This document shows, one piece after another, positions 1 to 12,368 of a DNA stretch of 64,000 nucleotides; the stretch's first letter is position 1, and each line of letters begins with the position of its first letter. Under the pieces are notes generated by a model. The model was not told the DNA's origin, did no database searches, and saw nothing but the letters and a program-made list of their open reading frames with translations. Source of the stretch: Eledone cirrhosa (lineage: Eukaryota); assembly GCA_964016885.1 (NCBI GenBank), contig OZ024747.1:86986001-87050000 (forward strand), read 5' to 3'. The translations under genes and the position numbers were made by a program.

Positions 1-141
1 CAGGAAAGTAATATTTCATTTGTCAACTGATGATTATTGGTGAGTGAGCCTTAATAAATCAGTCGGATAGTCTTTTTGTCAGGTGCCGTTTAGAATGTGA
101 CAGGCTCACTTACTTTAATTTCAGCAAACAGAGGGAGATAA

Positions 142-186
142 AGCTGACAAGGCCTTGTTTCGCATTTATTGATGCTTATCAAAGCC
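142..186 (-). ncRNA. Type I hammerhead ribozyme, U3-A8 core variant
   Basis: Minus strand: ggct TTGATAA gcat-caataa-atgc GAA acaagg-ccttgt C agct; stems I, II and III all pair; GUC site. Confidence 0.65.
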
Positions 187-456
187 AACTACTGTTTGCT
201 GAAATTAAAGTAAGTGATTCTATCACTACTCTAAAACAATAACATAAGGTCTTCGAAATGCTTTTAATTAAGCATACAATGTATTGCAAAATACACTGTA
301 TATACATTCATATATATATAGCTATTTCAGAGCACCAATTCTAATTTTCAATTTCTGCTTGACCGGCAACCGCTCTGTATAATCAGTTCCTGATTATTTA
401 CTAGAATTCTATCAGAAACAAACATCCACGATTTCAGCAGACAGGGGGAGTAGTTT

Positions 457-500
457 ACTTTGATAAGCACCAATAAATGCGAAACAAGGCCTTGTCAGCT
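457..500 (+). ncRNA. Second copy of the U3-A8 hammerhead, opposite orientation, weaker stem I
   Basis: act TTGATAA gca-ccaataaa-tgc GAA acaagg-ccttgt C agct. Confidence 0.5.
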
Positions 501-630
501 TTATCTCCCCCTGTTTGCTGAAATTAAAGTAAGTGAGTCTGTCACTACTCTAAAACAATAGCATAAGGTCTTAGAAATGCTTTTAATTAAGCATACAGTG
601 TATTGAAAAATGCACTATATATATACATTC

Positions 631-703
<73 letters not shown>

Positions 704-755
704 AAAATATTAAGAGAGTAAAACAAAGAATCCTTTAATACATCAAAAGTTTTTA

Positions 756-800
756 TTAGCCGACAATGTTTCGTCCTATTAAGGACTCATCAGGGCAATC
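756..800 (-). ncRNA. Minimal type I hammerhead ribozyme at the 3' end of the Penelope-like element
   Basis: Minus strand: attgcc CTGATGA gtcct-taat-aggac GAA aca-t-tgt C ggctaat; canonical core, GUC site, sense to the PLE ORF. Confidence 0.9.
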
Positions 801-887
801 AAAAATATATATATATATATTTATATTAGAAAGTGAGGTTTTTTTTACAAAATGAAAAATAACCGAGGTGTCCTACACGAGTGGAAG

Positions 888-1257
888 TATAAAGAAAAAG
901 GGATGAAATCGAAAATGCAACTGAAGTCTTATTTTTTTTTTAAATATATATATTTATTTGGTTCCTTTACCGGTTTCGCAGTTCTTCTGCTTTTCAAAAG
1001 GTGAGTTGAGATGGAGGGTCTGTGGTTTTTCTCACATCTGGTTGGTCTCTAAATGTTACTTGTTTTATATGGAAAACCTGGCTCGAAAACCAGGTTTTTC
1101 GAGAAGTAATTTGATTGGTTTGTCAATAATTATAATAAATTTCGCGCCAGTTCGCGTTACAATAGTTCTTCAAATAAGAGAGGGGGGTTGTCACAGGTTG
1201 TTTTTTCATATATGAGTGTTTGAATTTCTTTTTACTTGAAAAAATGAGGCTCACGAA
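888..1257. repeat. Pseudo-LTR segment (3' copy)
   Basis: Near-identical reverse complement of 5146-5522; gives the twin spurious ORFs 958-1215(+) and 5188-5451(-). Confidence 0.95.
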
Positions 1258-1509
1258 GGCTTTTTTTGGTTGGTTATAAATGAAATTTGGCTGTCACGTG
1301 AACAAGTTTTCATTACATTTTTGCGCCCTTATTTGGAAAACTATTCTGTAGTCTCTATAGTGAATGTTATGACAATGGAGAGATAGTGGTCAAGGGAAAA
1401 GGGATTGGGAGAAATGTTCTGGTTCAGTGAATATGGCCAGCTGTCAGAGTTCAGGTGTCAGAGTTCAGATTTTCTATTGAGACTGAAGATATGTGTTTAT
1501 TTGTGTGCT

Positions 1510-1546
<37 letters not shown>

Positions 1547-1804
1547 ATGTGTGTATTGGAAGATGATTCTATTAGTAGAGATGGGGGGGGGGGTTGTGTG
1601 TGTGTGCATATGGGTGTTATGTGTGTGTGTGCGAGTATGTTAGATACAGAGAATATATATTTTTTGTGTGTGTGTATATATATATGTGTGTAGGAAAGTG
1701 GTTCTATTAGTAGAAATGGGGAGGGTGTTGTAGGTGTGGGGGTTTTTATGTGTGTGTATGGGTGTTATGTGTGTGGGAGTATGGTTAGCATGTTAAGATG
1801 AAGA

Positions 1805-1842
<38 letters not shown>

Positions 1843-2047
1843 TGTGTGTGTATGTGTGTGTGTAGGAAAATGATTCCTTTAGTAGGAATATTTTTGAATG
1901 AACATATTTTCCTGACTTTTTCGTGTTTGCTGTTGTATTGCCAGTGCAAACGTATGTTTAAGGTTTATTTAGTTCGGGTTTTTATTTTCTAAAGTAGGTG
2001 TTATGTGTGTGTGTGTATGTCATATTGTGGTGTTGACATAATGTATA

Positions 2048-4318
2048 TTAAACCTTATTTAATGTTGGTCTATATTTTTGAATAAACATATTTTCCTTAT
2101 TTATTCGCATTTGTTCTGTTGTATTGTTAGCGCAAAGGTAAAATGGGAAGACTTGGAATTTGGGTGTCTTATTACTTGCGCAAATGTCTAGATGTGCACT
2201 TAGTGGTATTTGTCTCGTGGTTGGATCTCGTAATTGTTGGCGATGAACTGTCATTCTGTTTCTGAGTGTGAGTTTAGTTTGTCCTATATAATCTTCATTG
2301 CATCCTTTACATTTAATGGCATAAATTAGATTTTTTGATGAGCAAGTGAAGTGATTTTTTACAGTAAAATTTTGTCCTGATTTAAATGTATACGTGATGC
2401 CTTCAATGAGGTGAGTGCAGGTTCCACAATTAGAGCGACCACATTTTTTGATACTTGGTTGTGGGTTTGTGGTAGGTAATTTGGCATTGGTGAGTAATGT
2501 TTTCAGTGATTTTGGTTGTCTTTTGCTTTTGATTATTTTGTGTGTTTCAAGGGCTTTTTTCATTCTTGGGTTTTGTTTTAGTAGTGGGATGTTATTGTGA
2601 ATAGTGTTGTAAGCTTCCGCATTTCTTGGGTTGTGTGTTGAGATATATGATAGAATATTGGACGTACCTTGAATTTGTTTCTGTTTCCGTAATTCATCAA
2701 TGCCTATTGCTTTAGCCCTTTCTATTCCATTATTTATTAGTAATAGTGGGTACTCTCTCTCAAGTAGAATTTCCTTTAATTCTTGAAGTCTTTTATTTCG
2801 CGTTTCATAATTGGAGACAATTGTGCAAATTCTTCTTGCTAGGTTAAAAGGAATGTTCGTCTTCGTGTGCTTTGGATGGTTGGAGGTGAATAGCAGATAT
2901 TGTTTGGAATCTGTTGGTTTGTAGTGTATGTCAGTTTCGATATTTGTGTCTTTTTTTGTGATTAAGATGTCCAGAAATGGGAGTTGATCTTGGCTGTATT
3001 CCATTGTGAATTGGATGTGGTTATTGATGCCGTTTATTAAGTTTTTGAAATCCTTCAGTTGGTCGAGTGTGTGGGACCAAAGAATGAGGCAATCATCCAA
3101 GTAGCGTTTCCAATTCTCTGATAAATATTTGTGGAAGTTCAATCCGTATTTTGATTTGGACTGTTCATATATCTGGACTTCTAAGTATGCCATGACTAAG
3201 TTGGCATAAGTTGGAGCGGCTTTTGTGCCCATCGCAGTCCCCGATATTTGCTTGTAAGTATTGCCATCGAAATCAAAAAAGTTGTTCTGTAGGATGAATT
3301 TTAATCCCTCGGTGATGAAGCTTTTTTCTATTCTGTCAGGTATCTCATTGGGATATTTCTCTAGCCAGAATCCTATTGCTTCTAGTCCGTATTGGTGTGG
3401 GATCGTTGTGTAGAGATTCACTACATCGAAAGACACAATAATAGTGTCGTTGTTGACATGTTTGGGGAGGTGGTTTAAGAGGTCCAGATCGTCTCTTACA
3501 AGGCTTGGTATGTGTTTCAGTATTGGTTTCAGTAGTATGTCTATAAAGTTGCTCAATCTGTGTGTTTCACATTGTGGGCCCGCTACAATTGGTCTTAATT
3601 TAAGGTCTGTGGGGTATTGTGTGTTCACGCAGGCTGAGGTGGATTGTTTACAGGCATCGTTGATTATTTTACATTTGTGGATCTTCGGAAGTCCGTAAAG
3701 GTTGCTGGTTTTGTATTCAAAATTTGTTAAATAATCGCGTTCCTTTTTAGTTAGGTCTTCCTGGTATCGATAAATCAGTGTGTTTAATTTGGTCATTATT
3801 TTTGATTGCTGGTAGTTTTTTACTCTTTCATAGTAATTAGCATTTTGTAAGAGAGAGAACATAGAATTTTTATATTTTTCAGCCTCCATAATGACAACAG
3901 TACTTCCCTTGTCCGCTTCCTTAATTACAATGTCCGGATTGTTTTTTAGTTCATGGATAATCTCCCATTCCCTTCGACTTGTGTTGGGTTTGGGTTTAGG
4001 TTGCGGTAGTTCATGGTATGGGAAGGTAGCTATGTGGTCACAAAATTTGTCCAGAACTCTGTTTCTACCTTTTGTTGGGTTGTAGCTGCTTTTATTCCGT
4101 ACAATTGATTCGTCGTTATTCTCCTTGTCAAAGAATTCCTCTGTGAGACGTAATTTTCTACAGAAGTGTGAGATATCGTCATTTATCTCGTTGGGGTTAG
4201 GATATTGTGGTGTTGGTGTGAATTTCAGACCTTTGGAGAGAATTTTTACTTGTTGGGCTGAGAGGTTTGTATTTGAAATGTTAATTATTTTCGGTTTTTC
4301 AAAATCGGTTTGTGCCAC
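2048..4318 (-). CDS. PLE reverse transcriptase + C-terminal GIY-YIG endonuclease (ORF2), uninterrupted
   Basis: LSKGLKF, ADKG, YGLPKIHK, LRPIV, SFDVVNLYT, GTAMGT, RYLDD, LPFLD, HP motifs; Cys linker CGRSNCGTC; NLIYAIKCKGCNEDYIGQT...RMTVH. The listed start is GTG, not ATG. Confidence 0.95.
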   Translation of the reverse strand: MAQTDFEKPKIINISNTNLSAQQVKILSKGLKFTPTPQYPNPNEINDDISHFCRKLRLTEEFFDKENNDESIVRNKSSYNPTKGRNRVLDKFCDHIATFPYHELPQPKPKPNTSRREWEIIHELKNNPDIVIKEADKGSTVVIMEAEKYKNSMFSLLQNANYYERVKNYQQSKIMTKLNTLIYRYQEDLTKKERDYLTNFEYKTSNLYGLPKIHKCKIINDACKQSTSACVNTQYPTDLKLRPIVAGPQCETHRLSNFIDILLKPILKHIPSLVRDDLDLLNHLPKHVNNDTIIVSFDVVNLYTTIPHQYGLEAIGFWLEKYPNEIPDRIEKSFITEGLKFILQNNFFDFDGNTYKQISGTAMGTKAAPTYANLVMAYLEVQIYEQSKSKYGLNFHKYLSENWKRYLDDCLILWSHTLDQLKDFKNLINGINNHIQFTMEYSQDQLPFLDILITKKDTNIETDIHYKPTDSKQYLLFTSNHPKHTKTNIPFNLARRICTIVSNYETRNKRLQELKEILLEREYPLLLINNGIERAKAIGIDELRKQKQIQGTSNILSYISTHNPRNAEAYNTIHNNIPLLKQNPRMKKALETHKIIKSKRQPKSLKTLLTNAKLPTTNPQPSIKKCGRSNCGTCTHLIEGITYTFKSGQNFTVKNHFTCSSKNLIYAIKCKGCNEDYIGQTKLTLRNRMTVHRQQLRDPTTRQIPLSAHLDICASNKTPKFQVFPFYLCANNTTEQMRINKENMFIQKYRPTLNKV

Positions 4319-5145
4319 CGGGTGTCGTGAGTCCTGTAGCCTTGGTCTAAAAAATGATTTTTCTGGAATGTTTTTTCATTGGTATTATTATATCTAATGG
4401 TATTTCCCCTGTTGTTGTGTGGTCTTGTATAGAAGTTTCGGACGTATTGAGGTTCGGTTTGTTGATAGTCCGGATTGTAGATTTGGTTCCTTTGTGTGGG
4501 TTGGGATCTATGGTTTTGGAACAGGCTCTGTGTGGGCAGGGGTCTACGGTTTTGGAATAGGTTTTGTGTGGGTTGTGATCTGCGGATCAGGTCCTGCCTT
4601 GTGTTCGGGGATCTTTGGTTTTTGTTAGTAGGGTTATAGTTTTGTCTATGGTTTCTGGGATTATCGTTATAGTTTTGCTGGGGGTATGTTGGACGTTTTG
4701 TTACTTTTTTTGTTATTTGTTGTGCATGTGGTGTGTGAGTTTTAGTTTGTTTTAAAAATGGGTTACCTGTATGTTGTTCATTTTTGAAGTCCATTTCGTA
4801 GTTGTTGAACCAGGTGGCGTTTTTTTCCCATCGCTGGAGGGATGTGAGTTCTTCATCCTCACAGTTTTCTTTCCAAAGTTTTAGGGGTTTTTTGTAGAGT
4901 AGGCCTTCAGAGTGCTTTGAGATTTCTGTGTCCATCTGTTGGTCGAGTGACTTGAATTTTTCTTCGTTGGAGTTGGCTCTTAATCGCAACAGTTCTATTT
5001 CTGTTTTAAATTTTTCCAATGCCATCTTTTCCCTAAGTCTTTGTTGGTTTTCTGGTTCATTCGGGATGGGTTTTATTTGGAGTTTTTTGGGGAGGATGAT
5101 TGGGGTAGAGTTGATTCGTGAGATGATTCGTGATGATAGAGATGA
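4285..5145 (-). CDS. Upstream ORF1 of the PLE (charged helical/coiled-coil-like N-part, N/Q/R-rich C-part), open up to the truncation junction
   Basis: ORF 4285-5025 stays open upstream (...PIILPKKLQIKPIPNEPENQQRLREK-MALEK) to the inverted-repeat boundary; overlaps ORF2 in the -1 frame. Confidence 0.7.
   Translation of the reverse strand, partial: SSLSSRIISRINSTPIILPKKLQIKPIPNEPENQQRLREKMALEKFKTEIELLRLRANSNEEKFKSLDQQMDTEISKHSEGLLYKKPLKLWKENCEDEELTSLQRWEKNATWFNNYEMDFKNEQHTGNPFLKQTKTHTPHAQQITKKVTKRPTYPQQNYNDNPRNHRQNYNPTNKNQRSPNTRQDLIRRSQPTQNLFQNRRPLPTQSLFQNHRSQPTQRNQIYNPDYQQTEPQYVRNFYTRPHNNRGNTIRYNNTNEKTFQKNHFLDQGYRTHDTRWHKPILKNRK
4348..4354 (-). other. Candidate -1 ribosomal frameshift slippery heptamer T TTT TTA
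   Basis: ORF1 codons CAT TTT TTA; ORF2 is in the -1 frame and open across this site. Confidence 0.6.
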
Positions 5146-5522
5146 TTCGTGAGCCTCATTTTTTCAAGTAAAAAGAAATTCAAACACTCATATATGAAAA
5201 AACAACCTGTGACAACCCCCCCCCCCCTCTCTTATTTGAAGAACTATTGTAACGCGAAGTGGCGCGAAATTTATTATAATTATTGACAAACCAATCAAAT
5301 TACTTCTCGAAAAACCTGGTTTTCGAGCCAGGTTTTCCATATAAAACAAGTAACATTTAGAGACCAACCAGATGTGAGAAAAACCACAGACCCTCCATCT
5401 CAACTCACCTTTTGAAAAGCAGAAGAACTGCGAAACCGGTAAAGGAACCAAATAAATATATATATTTTTTTTAAAAAATAAGACTTCAGTTGCATTTTCG
5501 ATTTCATCCCTTTTTCTTTATA
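5146..5522. repeat. Inverted pseudo-LTR copy at the 5' truncation point
   Basis: Reverse complement of 888-1257; ends in (TA)n. Confidence 0.95.
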
Positions 5523-5796
5523 TATTTATATATATATAAATATATATATATAAAACTATATATATGTGTATATATATTTATATATATAAATATATACATA
5601 TATATTTATAAATATATAAATATATATATATATATAAAAATATATATAGATTTTGAGTTTATGTTGGTTGTATACCAACACCTCAGTATGCAGGCTGGAG
5701 CACTCGACGAAGTGCGCAGGTTGGTTTGGTTACTCCGGAGTAGTGTAAAATAAAGTTAAATAAAAGTCAAATGATTAAAATTTAGCTTCGTTTATT

Positions 5797-5851
5797 ACTG
5801 CTATATATATTTCAGTGACAGCCATCTTTGGCTGTGACCTCTTCAGGCAGT
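5797..5851 (-). ncRNA. Type I hammerhead ribozyme
   Basis: actgc CTGAAGA ggtcacagcc-aaagat-ggctgtcact GAA atat-atat A gcagt; lies in a TA-flanked module at ~5650-6190. Confidence 0.8.
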
Positions 5852-6399: not shown

Positions 6400-6450
6400 A
6401 GCTTCTACAGGACTAGTACTGTTTCATTCAGATGAAATCTTCAGGAAGCT
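6400..6450 (-). ncRNA. Type I hammerhead ribozyme
   Basis: agcttc CTGAAGA tttca-tc-tgaat GAA acag-tactagtc-ctgt A gaagct; 6-bp stem I, GUA site. Confidence 0.8.
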
Positions 6451-6689
6451 GGGTGTCATATTAAGTTCTGGTATTTATACATTTAGGTAGTGGTAAGGGG
6501 GTGGATTGGGGGGGTTTGGGGGGGAATGGTATTTAGATACATAGGACCACTTCATGGCACAGGCCGTTTTTTCTTTGGGGAGTGGTCAATTAGCCAGAGT
6601 GCTTTTTGAAATAAATAAATAAGTCAATAAATAAATAAATGAATAAATAAATAGATAAATGAATAAATAAATAAAATAAATAAAAGATC

Positions 6690-7666
6690 CCACTGGATCA
6701 ACAAAAAATCTGAGATCCCCTTCGACGTTAGCATGGGTGCTATCGACTCAGCTGAGATTAGTGACCTTGTGGGTCTGTTCATCCTCCACAGGTTGAAGAC
6801 CCTCTTCGCAGGCCTCTCCGGCGGTCTCTACCGAGATGACGGCCTCTTTGCCCCCCACAAAATCAACCCCAGGACCACGGATGGGTTCAGGAAAAACTTT
6901 TACACCTTCTTTAAAAACTTAGGCCTTAGGATTACCTTAGATTCGAACTTAACTAAAGCTAACTTCCTAGACGTTACCCCGACTTAGAAACTTCCCTTTA
7001 CTACCCGTACCACAAACCTAATGAATCCCTTAGATATATAGACGTTAATTCTAACCACCCCAAAAATATATTAGACAACCTAGTAAAAAGTGTCTCCATT
7101 AGGATATCTAGCCTCGCCGCCAATGAAGATATCTTTAGAGCAGCAGCCCCCTATTACAACGAGGCCCTGGCCCGCAGCGGCTTTAGAGATAAGATCACCT
7201 ACCTAACTATAGCCCCACGCCCACCCAGGAAGAATAGGCGAAGGCACATTAGCTTAATAAGAATACCATTAGACTCTCTTACTCTACCACACCTAATCTA
7301 GCTAGAAACTTAGCCAACAACAACATCAAGAAGCTAAATAAGTCTACTTTTTCCGAAGCCCATCCAGCAACCGATAGCAACTGCAATTGCCCTGATAAGA
7401 CGACCTGCCCTCTCAACAACAACTGTCTAAAAAAAGATCTCGTGTATACATGCGATGTACTCTCAGGCCCCGATGAAAAAAGAAACTCGTACATCGGGAT
7501 GACTTCTAATAGTTTTAAGACTCGCTGGTAAGCCCACACACATTCGTTCCGGCGCCCAGACAAATCTAACCAGACTACACTCGCCGCCCACATCTGGCAC
7601 CTAAAAAGGAACTCCATCCCCTTCAAGACCCAATGGAGACTACTCCAGAGAGCGCGATCATACACG
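6690..7666 (+). pseudogene. Degenerate second PLE lineage (YRDD-type RT, GIY-YIG), with frameshift and stops
   Basis: FDVSMGAIDSAEISDLVG, GLYRDDGL, NFLDVT, then CNCPDKTTCPLNNNC..LVYTC..YIGMT..FKTRW*AHTHSF; preceded by an inverted HHR-bearing end (6310-6600). Confidence 0.85.
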
Positions 7667-8340
7667 GGCTGGATCTTGAGGACTTTCCTTACAAGAGATC
7701 GAGACACCATGTTGACACTGTGGAGGACTTTTGTCCTAAGCCACCTGGACTACTACTCCCAGCTGTGGTCACCCCATAGTGTCAAACTAACCACGGAGCT
7801 TGAGGCAATCCAGCGAAGCTACACCAAGAGGATTGCCAAGATGAGGGAGACAAGCTACTGGGAGAGGCTAAAGGAACTGAACCTCTATTCCTTGGAGCGA
7901 AGACGGGAGAGATACGCAGTGATCTACATGTGGAAAATCCTGGAGGGACTAGCACCAAACTTTGGCATTGGGAGCTGGACCAACCGTCGAACAGAACGTC
8001 ACTGTGTGGTGCCAAAGGTCCCGTCTTCCAAATCTAGAATAAGGAGCAGGTATTGCAATAGCCTGGGATTCAAGGGCCCTCAACTCTTCAACAGGCTGCC
8101 GAGGCATCTGAGAGACTTGCATGACGTGGAGGTGGATGTCTTTAAGAAACATCTAGACACCTTGTTATCCAGGATCCCGGATGAGCCCACAGCAAGACAC
8201 GAGGGAAACCTAAGGGCAGCAGCAACAAACTCCCTCCTACACCAGTGGCCAACCTATACAGGCTGGAGATAAAATGTGTAGCAACAAGGGCGGTGCCCCA
8301 GCATGGCCTCAGCCGGATGGCTGAAACAGGTAAAAGAGTA

Positions 8341-10010: not shown

Positions 10011-10142
10011 ACGAATCAGTTTAGCCGACGTTTATTATAACGCAGCTTTGTTCGCTTGTTTGTCAACAAACCGAACAGCCTGAATTTATGCCATACGGTG
10101 TTAAGGCAACCACGTCACCTTTTTGTTCAACACTGACACAGG

Positions 10143-10187
10143 AACGATGTACTAGTTTCAAGCTTGTTAGCTATCATCAGCACCGTT
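10143..10187 (-). ncRNA. Minimal type I hammerhead ribozyme
   Basis: aacggtg CTGATGA tagct-aaca-agctt GAA act-agt A catcgtt; 7-bp stem I, palindromic stem III. Confidence 0.85.
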
Positions 10188-10249
10188 TACCCATCTGCCA
10201 GATAGTTGAACGTTCGAAAGTATATACTTTCCTTATGAAAATTAACGGG

Positions 10250-12105
10250 AGCAAGAAAACCCAAGTAATGTGCAAGTTTTTCAGGAACGGGATCTGCTGG
10301 CATGGAGAGACAGGGATCGGCTGCAGATTCGCCCACCCCAGGTCCCAAACGAACTATGCCCATCCTACTCGCGCAACATGCCCCAGCCAAAGCCGAAACA
10401 AGCCGCTCCAGATGTATGCTGATGTCGTGCGTGCCGCGCCAACAAGGAGAAAGCACGCACATGCCGACGAGATACAGATGACAGCAGCAGAGCAGAATAT
10501 TTTTTTAGTGATGGCAGAGAATATTGGGGAACAGCTGGCCTGGATGCATCATTTCCAGATCCAGGGTTACTCACACCAGCACTCGAGAAAACCACAGCTA
10601 AGGGACACAGAGTGGCCGCCGCTGACACCAAACCAGGTGTCATACCGACAGCAATTACTGGCACCCCAAAAGTCACATCAGTGCTGCTGCTGAATGTCAG
10701 AGGCCTGGTGAAACTCAGTAACATGAGTAAAATTGTCTTCCTGCGAGACTTAGCCATAAGCAATCAAGCATTATGCATGGGACTAACCGAAACGCACCTG
10801 ACAAGCAGTATAGCAGATGCAGAAATACATATACCGAAATATACTGCATTTCGTTCGGACAGGAAGGAGAGAACTCATGGTGGAGTTGCTCTGTATATCC
10901 GTGAAGATGTCACACTAATTGTACTGTTGACACATTCAAACTCAGTCTGTGACACACTGATAGTACATATGAAGCAACTACAGACAGTAATATGTGTCAC
11001 ATATCGGCCGCCCGATGCCCCCAGTCATGAGGGTAAATTTGAGGATAGCCTCAGTAGGATAGAAGAGGTCCTTGACAAACTGGATCAGGGTCTCAACATT
11101 CTACTGCTGGGAGACTTCAACCTGTCAAAGGTCAAATGGCCTGAGGGCCACCTCCTCCTCGGAATGACATCAATAGAACAGAGACAGACGGAATCCCTGC
11201 TGGCCCTCACACACAGGCTGTTCATGGAACAAGCAATACTCCTCTCAACAAGAGGCGAAAATGTCCTGGACCTCTGTTTTACAAACAACGAAGTGCTCGT
11301 CCACAATGTAAAGGTGACACCAACAATTTTCTCGGATCATAACTTAGTAGAACTAATGATATGTGGTCCGAGAGAACCAACAGAGACAAAACCACCAAGA
11401 AGCTCCGGGACGCTATCCAGCCTTAATTTCTACAAGGCTAACTGTAAAAAGATCAAGAGAGAAATCGGGAAGCAAACATGGAGCGAAAACACCGCCACAC
11501 AAGACAACAACACACAATTTCAACACTTCATGACAACGATACACACTATATGCAAAAGGCAAACAGACACAAAAATCTTATTCCCATAGATAGGAAAATC
11601 CTTATGAGACGTAGAACCAAGCTCCCAAACCAGTTGAATGCACAACAAGAAAACAAAAACAAGAAGGAATCCTATTTGAAACGTGCACTACTTGGCACCG
11701 AGATTGCACTCAAACTTTACCATGAAAATGAGAGGGCAAAGAAAGAAAGCACGGCCATAGAAAACATTAAAACAAACCCTATGGCCTTCTTTAAATTTGC
11801 AAAAGAAACTGCCTCGGTACACTGCAAGATTGGGCCACTCTTCCATACAGACGGTTCATTAACCGAGAATCCCCAAGAGATATGTGAAATACTGAACGAA
11901 CAGTACAAAAGTGTGTTCACATGTCCACTAAGGCACATGCAAATAACAAAGCCAGAGGAGTTCTTTGATGCCACAACACTACAAGAAGAAATGGCGACCA
12001 TCAACCACATAGACATAACGGAGGAGGATGTGGTATACGCCATAGATGAAATTAGAACAGACTCAACTGCTGGACCTGATGGATTCCCAGCAGTCCTCTT
12101 GAGAG
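10250..12105 (+). mobile_element. Internal fragment of a CR1/L2-group LINE: CCCH-like zinc finger in ORF1, APE endonuclease, start of RT; frameshifted
   Basis: CKFFRNGICWHGETGIGCRFAHP; LLNVRGL, LTETHL, RSDR..HGGVALYI, YRPP, GDFN, VLDL, SDHNLV; AGPDGFPAVLL. Confidence 0.88.
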
Positions 12106-12368
12106 TGAATGTAAACCTTGTCTTTTATCTGTGTATTATTGTGTATATTTCTAAAGATAGTTTTTTCAAAGAATCTCAATTCTTTAAAATCCCTTGACAA
12201 ATTACCTCTACCCATCCACAAAAATAACCACCTTCCTCAACCACCAGAAAACATATATTTACAACCGTTTTACAAGGCTTTCCTGGTGATTTCTTTCGAA
12301 TTAAACAGTTCTCTACTAGTGTATTGAGAACCTTACTTACTGTGCTTACCCCGATTGAACCCGAAACT

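Follow-up and report, generated by a model that had tools for sequence, protein, structure and literature searches.

The apparently flipped hammerhead loop of an Eledone cirrhosa repeat is a junction between two head-to-head partial copies

Architecture of the locus and its hammerhead motifs

The window analyzed here is a whole 64,000-nt stretch of Eledone cirrhosa DNA (GenBank assembly GCA_964016885.1, contig OZ024747.1, positions 86,986,001 to 87,050,000, forward strand), and the coordinates of its features count from its first nucleotide. The locus of interest, at 88–640, has no ORF of at least 100 aa, and so lacks the ORF with reverse transcriptase (RT) and GIY-YIG domains that an autonomous Penelope-like element (PLE) would carry. 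Its direct arm begins with a partial unit, the 3′ part of a monomer (192–325, plus strand), and continues into a full monomer (326–640, plus strand) that ends in an internal TA run, the tail-less end type of the family. The two units have a common downstream tail, as the initial annotation stated (192–325 and 511–644; 88% match ungapped, 92% by BLAST), at a spacing of 319 nt. The motif TTCTAAT at 339–345 (plus strand) is internal here, and elsewhere in the repeat family it is the end of tail-bearing arms against (AT)n. A (TA)n microsatellite lies at 612–705; judged by its sequence and by the insertion flanks of other loci, it is of the family's target type.

The direct arm is preceded by an inverted, 5′-truncated arm (89–193, minus strand), which equals 449–554 read backwards and lacks both its outer ~85–110 nt and the expected (TA)n end. 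The two arms meet head to head at 192–193 with a 2-nt overlap, 6 nt off register within the hairpin-arm complementarity (i.e., with 6 nt missing relative to an in-register switch). As an inverted repeat, 97–193 matches 449–545 over 97 nt at 95%, and the loops at 132–191 and 451–510 are reverse complements of each other. The reversed loop is thus real, but the inversion covers 89–193, which is longer than the ~60-nt loop itself. Near-identical arms are present at 118–137 and 431–450 (90% match); however, what forms the left arm of the first unit is the 3′ arm together with the tail, in reverse (89–131 pairs with 192–235), and not the native 5′ arm plus upstream flank, so the earlier description of two units sharing arms does not hold. 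The inverted repeats in which the loop was said to sit are genuine 20-bp arms (431–450 with 505–524, forming a plus-strand hairpin at 431–524), but they continue hammerhead helix I distally. The z-score of this hairpin is −7.7 and that of the other hairpin at the locus −4.8, both far beyond chance.

The hammerheads do lie on opposite strands, with cores of the form UUGAUAA...GAAA...GUC at 146–182 (minus) and 460–496 (plus), or 142–186 and 456–500 when helix I is included. The minus-strand motif is of type I, with the U3-A8 core UUGAUAA, a 4-bp helix II, a 12-nt palindromic helix III and a predicted cut after C146; its proximal helix I is intact, and its distal helix I is shortened by the join. 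The plus-strand copy has its predicted cut after C496; changes private to it weaken one pair of helix II and also helix I, where TACT replaces GGCT. The same UUGAUAA core was found in 102 of 109 parsed copies (138 were found, 29 not parsed) and in 108 of 119 in a further count. Among 33 aligned copies, 94.1% of helix cells are paired, and two-sided changes occur at two pairs of helix II (17/15 and 17/12), two of the palindromic helix III (16/10 and 20/10) and one of helix I (29/3), although these reflect few subfamily events and not many independent ones. Rfam gave no match at the gathering score for the motifs at 142–186 or 456–500, and their matches to HH9 were weak (E 0.32 and 2.6); the predicted hammerhead fold is supported by covariation, not by Rfam.

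The innermost pairs of the helix III palindrome, which could not form within one hairpin because they are too close together, have kept their complementarity between subfamilies (GG-CC to AG-CT), and the energy of the palindrome is −19.5 kcal/mol as a dimer and 0 as a monomer. For PLE hammerheads, Cervera and de la Pena (2014; PMC4209133) described U3-A8 covariation (~1,300 matches in Schistosoma), a palindromic helix III, which they interpreted as a dimer ribozyme, and opposite-strand motif pairs 100–700 bp apart. The present repeat likewise has U3-A8, a palindromic helix III and opposite-strand pairs, and differs from the hammerheads in the accessible text of that paper by its 4-bp helix II, its 12-nt palindrome and a helix I extended by a 20-bp hairpin. 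U3-A8 is not named in the accessible text of PMC3088659. The proposal that either strand of a transcript could be self-cleaving is trivially true, as it is for any inverted insertion, but a transcript spanning both window copies is predicted, from either strand, to form a ~100-bp duplex that buries both motifs, which would block rather than double self-cleavage in the window.

A second hammerhead, considered on the antisense strand of the monomer at 311–351 (minus strand), was rejected: it has a core-like string and a palindromic helix III but, by inspection, no helix I. No antisense-strand hammerhead was found in the monomer, which therefore falls outside the both-polarity viroid-like class.

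The repeat family and its insertions

The repeat unit is non-coding, without an ORF, and has a monomer length of ~319 nt (spacing 319 in the window, 315–324 in L109 and L025). The exact 23-nt tail motif has at least 4,165 matches in the genome and the intact 5′ flank plus arm has 1,140; a DNA search of the same genome gave 2,490 candidates, 40 of which were scored. A circle of the unit is predicted to be strongly self-paired (−79.4 vs. −51.3 ± 5.4 kcal/mol for 40 shuffles). Two samples of loci were drawn. The first, by position, took the 100 first listed tail-motif matches on one contig (C1) and yielded 61 loci after nine double fetches, two loci already included and the last four places were dropped; the second comprised 60 loci from the list of 221 sense copies, selected for an intact 5′ flank. 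Arms exceed one unit in 30 of the 61 loci, and such tandem arms fit the circular or multimeric template that has been proposed for these elements (PMC4209133; PMC7229834). At L107 (483–1110), a shortened 163-nt unit without the hammerhead is present in about four tandem copies, which fits a deleted circular template.

Head-to-head joins were present at 37 of 61 loci in the position sample and 36 of 60 in the second, with breakpoints distributed round the whole unit, and 16 of the 37 joins overlap by at least 1 nt. The 3′ ends fall into two classes: one stops at the internal TA run, and the other extends ~25 nt beyond it to CCAATTCTAAT, followed by (AT)n. Exactly one arm carries this ~25-nt tail in 28 of 36 two-armed loci (27 of 36 in the second sample), and the remaining 8 of the 36 comprise two TA/TA loci, one tail/tail locus and five with a damaged end. 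Tail-to-tail flags came up rarely, on two short pieces in the initial mapping of the first sample and later once per sample. The tail-bearing arm is the longer one in 13 loci, the shorter in 13 and equal in 2. Arms of the same locus have a mean identity of 94.4%, which is above their mean with other loci in 29 of 29 cases and the best of all in 14 of 29. (TA)n targets flank the insertions, and the inverted 5′-truncated head-to-head copy, the one-ended tail and the (TA)n target together give the repeat the anatomy of a PLE-type insertion.

A small, non-autonomous, retrozyme-like element behaving like a PLE pseudo-LTR had been proposed from the window alone, and the non-coding tandem unit with its insertion anatomy agrees with this. 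Judged by sequence features, the element belongs to the known non-LTR retrozyme kind; retrozymes have been described as non-autonomous PLE derivatives (10.64898/2026.07.22.740005). It shares with metazoan non-LTR retrozymes (PMC7229834; 10.64898/2026.07.22.740005) a GC-poor, non-coding tandem unit in the 150–450-bp range that holds a single type I hammerhead, a dispersed copy number in the thousands and a strongly self-paired predicted circle. As those sources' available text describes them, it differs in its U3-A8 core, its head-to-head two-armed (TA)n insertions and its two fixed ends. The words inverted, microsatellite and antisense are absent from the main text of Cervera and de la Pena (2020; PMC7229834). 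Like EN+ PLEs and their pseudo-LTRs (Craig et al., 2021, PMC8557442; Arkhipova et al., 2013, PMC3846280; Frangieh et al., 2024, PMC11167929), the repeat shows partial tandems, a (TA)n preference, a hammerhead near the 3′ end, and the inverted 5′-truncated copy and short one-ended tail that PMC8557442 gives for PLE copies. Set against the available text of these papers, it has no ORF, a tail of ~25 nt rather than 30–40, and no pLTR homology to the adjoining PLE.

One locus, L044 (G000:C9:29069096-29072223), holds 88 nt of flank from another, L042 (G000:C7:65826835-65829962), together with that locus's microsatellite, inverted arm and junction. The L042-derived piece sits between two arms of another subfamily, and L044 is apparently a case in which a gap was filled during joining with a distant copy as the template.

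Loop orientation and joining of the arms

The initial annotation read the locus as a flip/flop element, in which hairpin-primed replication or arm recombination inverts the ribozyme loop and both isomers propagate. Rolling-hairpin replicons such as parvoviruses have flip/flop terminal hairpins, and the likeness to them lies in a loop found in two orientations between complementary arms; true isomers, however, retain both outer flanks, and none such were found for this repeat. Taking as a flipped isomer any copy in which the reversed loop comes after the native upstream flank, we found 0 vs. 221 sense copies in a genome pattern search, 0 vs. 1,140 normal copies with a broader genome pattern spanning both main subfamilies, and 0 vs. 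180 when mismatches were permitted within the fetched loci. Joins of the window type, which run reversed loop, arm, tail, do recur, with five exact genome matches, window included. A wider search for such joins gave 1,919 candidates, of which 40 were scored and the 30 best loci analyzed: 8 of these switch in register within the arms, 11 switch near the arms and the remainder at other short overlaps. In 28 of the 30, the inverted piece spans the entire reversed tail, which identifies the window-type loci as head-to-head junctions. Counting loop orientation across the genome, as the annotation had suggested, thus shows an arrangement that is not a one-off but whose recurrences are such junctions.

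A loop reversed between arm-like sequences in the window, with five exact recurrences and eight in-register switches among the 30 best loci, is what a flip/flop element would leave, yet the absence of the reversed loop from all native-flank copies and the inclusion of the tail in the inverted part make this reading hardly credible. Its recurrences also differ in join point and have no common element-adjacent flanks except in L042 and L044, and the one captured copy in L044 is the only sign that a flipped-looking unit was ever re-mobilized as an element. We regard an error in the assembly of this locus, or a subsequent rearrangement of the DNA, as similarly far-fetched. The inverted arm is abnormally cut at 89, and no contig among those listed bridges the join at 192, both points in favor of such an error; but loci elsewhere, on several contigs, have joins of the same type, the two hammerhead copies are distinguished by several nucleotide differences, and contigs of runs X1 and X2 match 1–131 and 1–126, from the left border into the inverted arm, with no differences (one sample, possibly the assembly's own source). 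The apparent flipped loop is the meeting point of two back-to-back partial copies of the repeat, with no switchable loop.

Under uniform breakpoints, an in-register arm join has a probability of 0.0004 per locus, or fewer than one expected genome-wide (for ~1,800 two-armed loci, our own rough estimate from the motif count and the two-armed fraction), vs. at least 8 seen; the ~20-nt arm complementarity therefore favors this join. Window-like joins make up ~1% of loci, and the hairpin arms are just a favored microhomology among scattered join points. They provide a small natural test in which microhomology steers joining. A mobile element with a ribozyme of switchable orientation would have been a novelty and is absent here, and PLE-type insertions seen in one isolated window can resemble invertible loops. 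Literature searches, with most subscription papers and all supplements outside their scope, found no flip/flop retrozyme and, under those words, no head-to-head hammerhead Penelope copies.

Possible mode of copying and the neighboring PLE

The window locus is very probably one two-armed, head-to-head insertion of this abundant ~319-nt hammerhead repeat, likely copied by a PLE protein, with the reversed loop as the point where its arms meet. In the sequence of events that we propose, tandem copies would be transcribed and the palindromic helix III would pair two motifs as a double hammerhead, releasing monomers or circles. A PLE protein would then cut both strands of a (TA)n target, and reverse transcription would start at two internal RNA sites, the TA run and TTCTAAT ~25 nt on, one for each DNA end. 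Each cDNA might extend a variable distance, at times beyond one unit, before the two cDNA ends were joined, often at a short microhomology, as we infer from the overlaps in 16 of 37 joins and the arm-to-arm excess. Where one arm stopped in the 5′ arm of helix I and the other in its 3′ arm, the ~20-nt complementarity would favor the join and produce the flipped-loop look.

In vitro, a PLE protein predicted to be dimeric cuts and extends both strands of AT-rich DNA, and two internal RNA start sites bound the PLE tail (PMC11167929); this extension of both strands from two RNA start sites would account for two arms with two different ends. The choice of start site did not, however, differ between the two strands in vitro (PMC11167929), contrary to the two ends here, which almost always differ, and the proposed route leaves the near-strict one-tail rule unexplained. 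It also does not account for the one tail-to-tail pair in 60 loci (L208), nor for an inverted arm in the window that stops at 89 without (TA)n or tail. Arm 5′ ends at 165–194, around the predicted cut site, numbered 18 of 103 in the first sample and 11 of 98 in the second, counts confounded by short-arm bias; the excess at this site is at most weak in one sample and absent in the other, and so gives no sign of cleavage in vivo. For retrozymes, 8 of 9 dimers tested did not cleave (Li, Clavereau and Pollet, 2026; 10.64898/2026.07.22.740005).

Instead of two cDNAs, a single cDNA might snap back with the help of the hairpin arms and copy itself, with later trimming to hide the length rule. Self-priming of this kind has been proposed for head-to-head PLE copies (PMC3846280), and it would suit the variants shared by arms of the same locus, the palindromic joins at L067 and L071, and the five loci joined at an AGCT palindrome beside the predicted cut site. 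A folded-back arm cannot exceed its template, however, whereas tail-bearing and TA-ended arms are each the longer one in 13 loci; there are also two distinct fixed ends, in agreement with a pair of reverse-transcription start sites (PMC11167929), and in one case, L044, foreign DNA was captured between the arms. We consider fold-back improbable. A further and rather unlikely suggestion is that the 12-nt palindromic helix III may serve as an RNA dimerization signal for insertion too, keeping two RNA copies of one transcript together while a PLE dimer primes one of them per cut end from different start sites. If true, this would explain why arms share variants, differ in their ends and have independent lengths, and the U3-A8 core and TTCTAAT end in common would mark the neighboring Neptune/Nematis-type PLE clade as the helper. 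More generally, thousands of short insertions would record PLE two-end priming and joining, steps left open by the sole in vitro study.

A PLE with RT and GIY-YIG domains and a CX4CX2C linker lies beside the locus (825–5525, minus strand) and is not part of the repeat. The RVT_1 match (E 1.3e-6) is just below the Pfam cut-off, the GIY-YIG match has E 3e-6, and the linker is given for Neptune and Nematis (PMC8557442). This copy is itself head to head, with a long arm from 5163 to 825 and an inverted short arm at ~5160–5525; it has U3-A8 hammerhead motifs at 968–997 (minus) and 5412–5441 (plus), and its tail ends in TTCTAAT at 831–825. The family is young (98–99% identity, 1,196 candidates). In 20 loci picked by their tail-bearing end, the sequence there is CACTTTCTAAT with (AT)n after it; the four opposite ends in view among them stop ~60 nt earlier at a TA. 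The same architecture, U3-A8 core and TTCTAAT tail end make this PLE a candidate mobilizer of the repeat. Beyond the hammerhead core (22 of 27 nt, E 0.33) and the 7-nt tail end, the two have no other homology, with this PLE family the only one compared, which leaves it no more than a candidate helper; a tblastn of its protein against the retrozyme loci L002–L131 returned only two short C-terminal fragments. At L024 (1080–1770), a retrozyme copy and the 3′ end of this PLE family adjoin a single TA run, an arrangement also present in the window; since (TA)n is the target of both, the common run may be a coincidence.

The neighboring PLE has two overlapping ORFs (4285–5163 and 2048–4375, minus strand), of ~400 aa and then a 775-aa RT/GIY-YIG frame in a −1 relation. 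Canonical PLEs have a single ORF. The string CAT TTT TTA GAC at the overlap was seen in 7 of 8 fetched loci (including L242 and L244–L249), in 8 copies altogether. It may be either a U_UUU_UUA slippery heptamer, as in retroviruses, or the TTTTTTAG splice acceptor that a retained intron would have, and our literature search found nothing on frameshifting in Neptune or Penelope-like elements. In tandem copies of this PLE (L244:1218–1260 and L249:1194–1236), TTCTAAT runs into ATATACCC and ORF1 starts ~25 nt later, so that the PLE tail doubles as 5′ leader for the unit that follows.

Several other elements lie in the window. A third, canonical C3-G8 type I hammerhead at 755–799 (minus strand; Rfam Hammerhead_1, 31.7 bits, E 1.2e-5) sits in a ~100-nt fragment between two TA runs and belongs to another family. 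Two hammerhead-like strings with CUGAAGA cores were seen by eye at ~5800–5835 and ~6410–6450 (both minus strand), the latter adjoining PLE-like RT fragments at 6667–7301. Non-LTR retrotransposon fragments, with endonuclease- and RT-like frames recognized by eye, are present at 7532–8272 and 10025–12197 (both plus strand).
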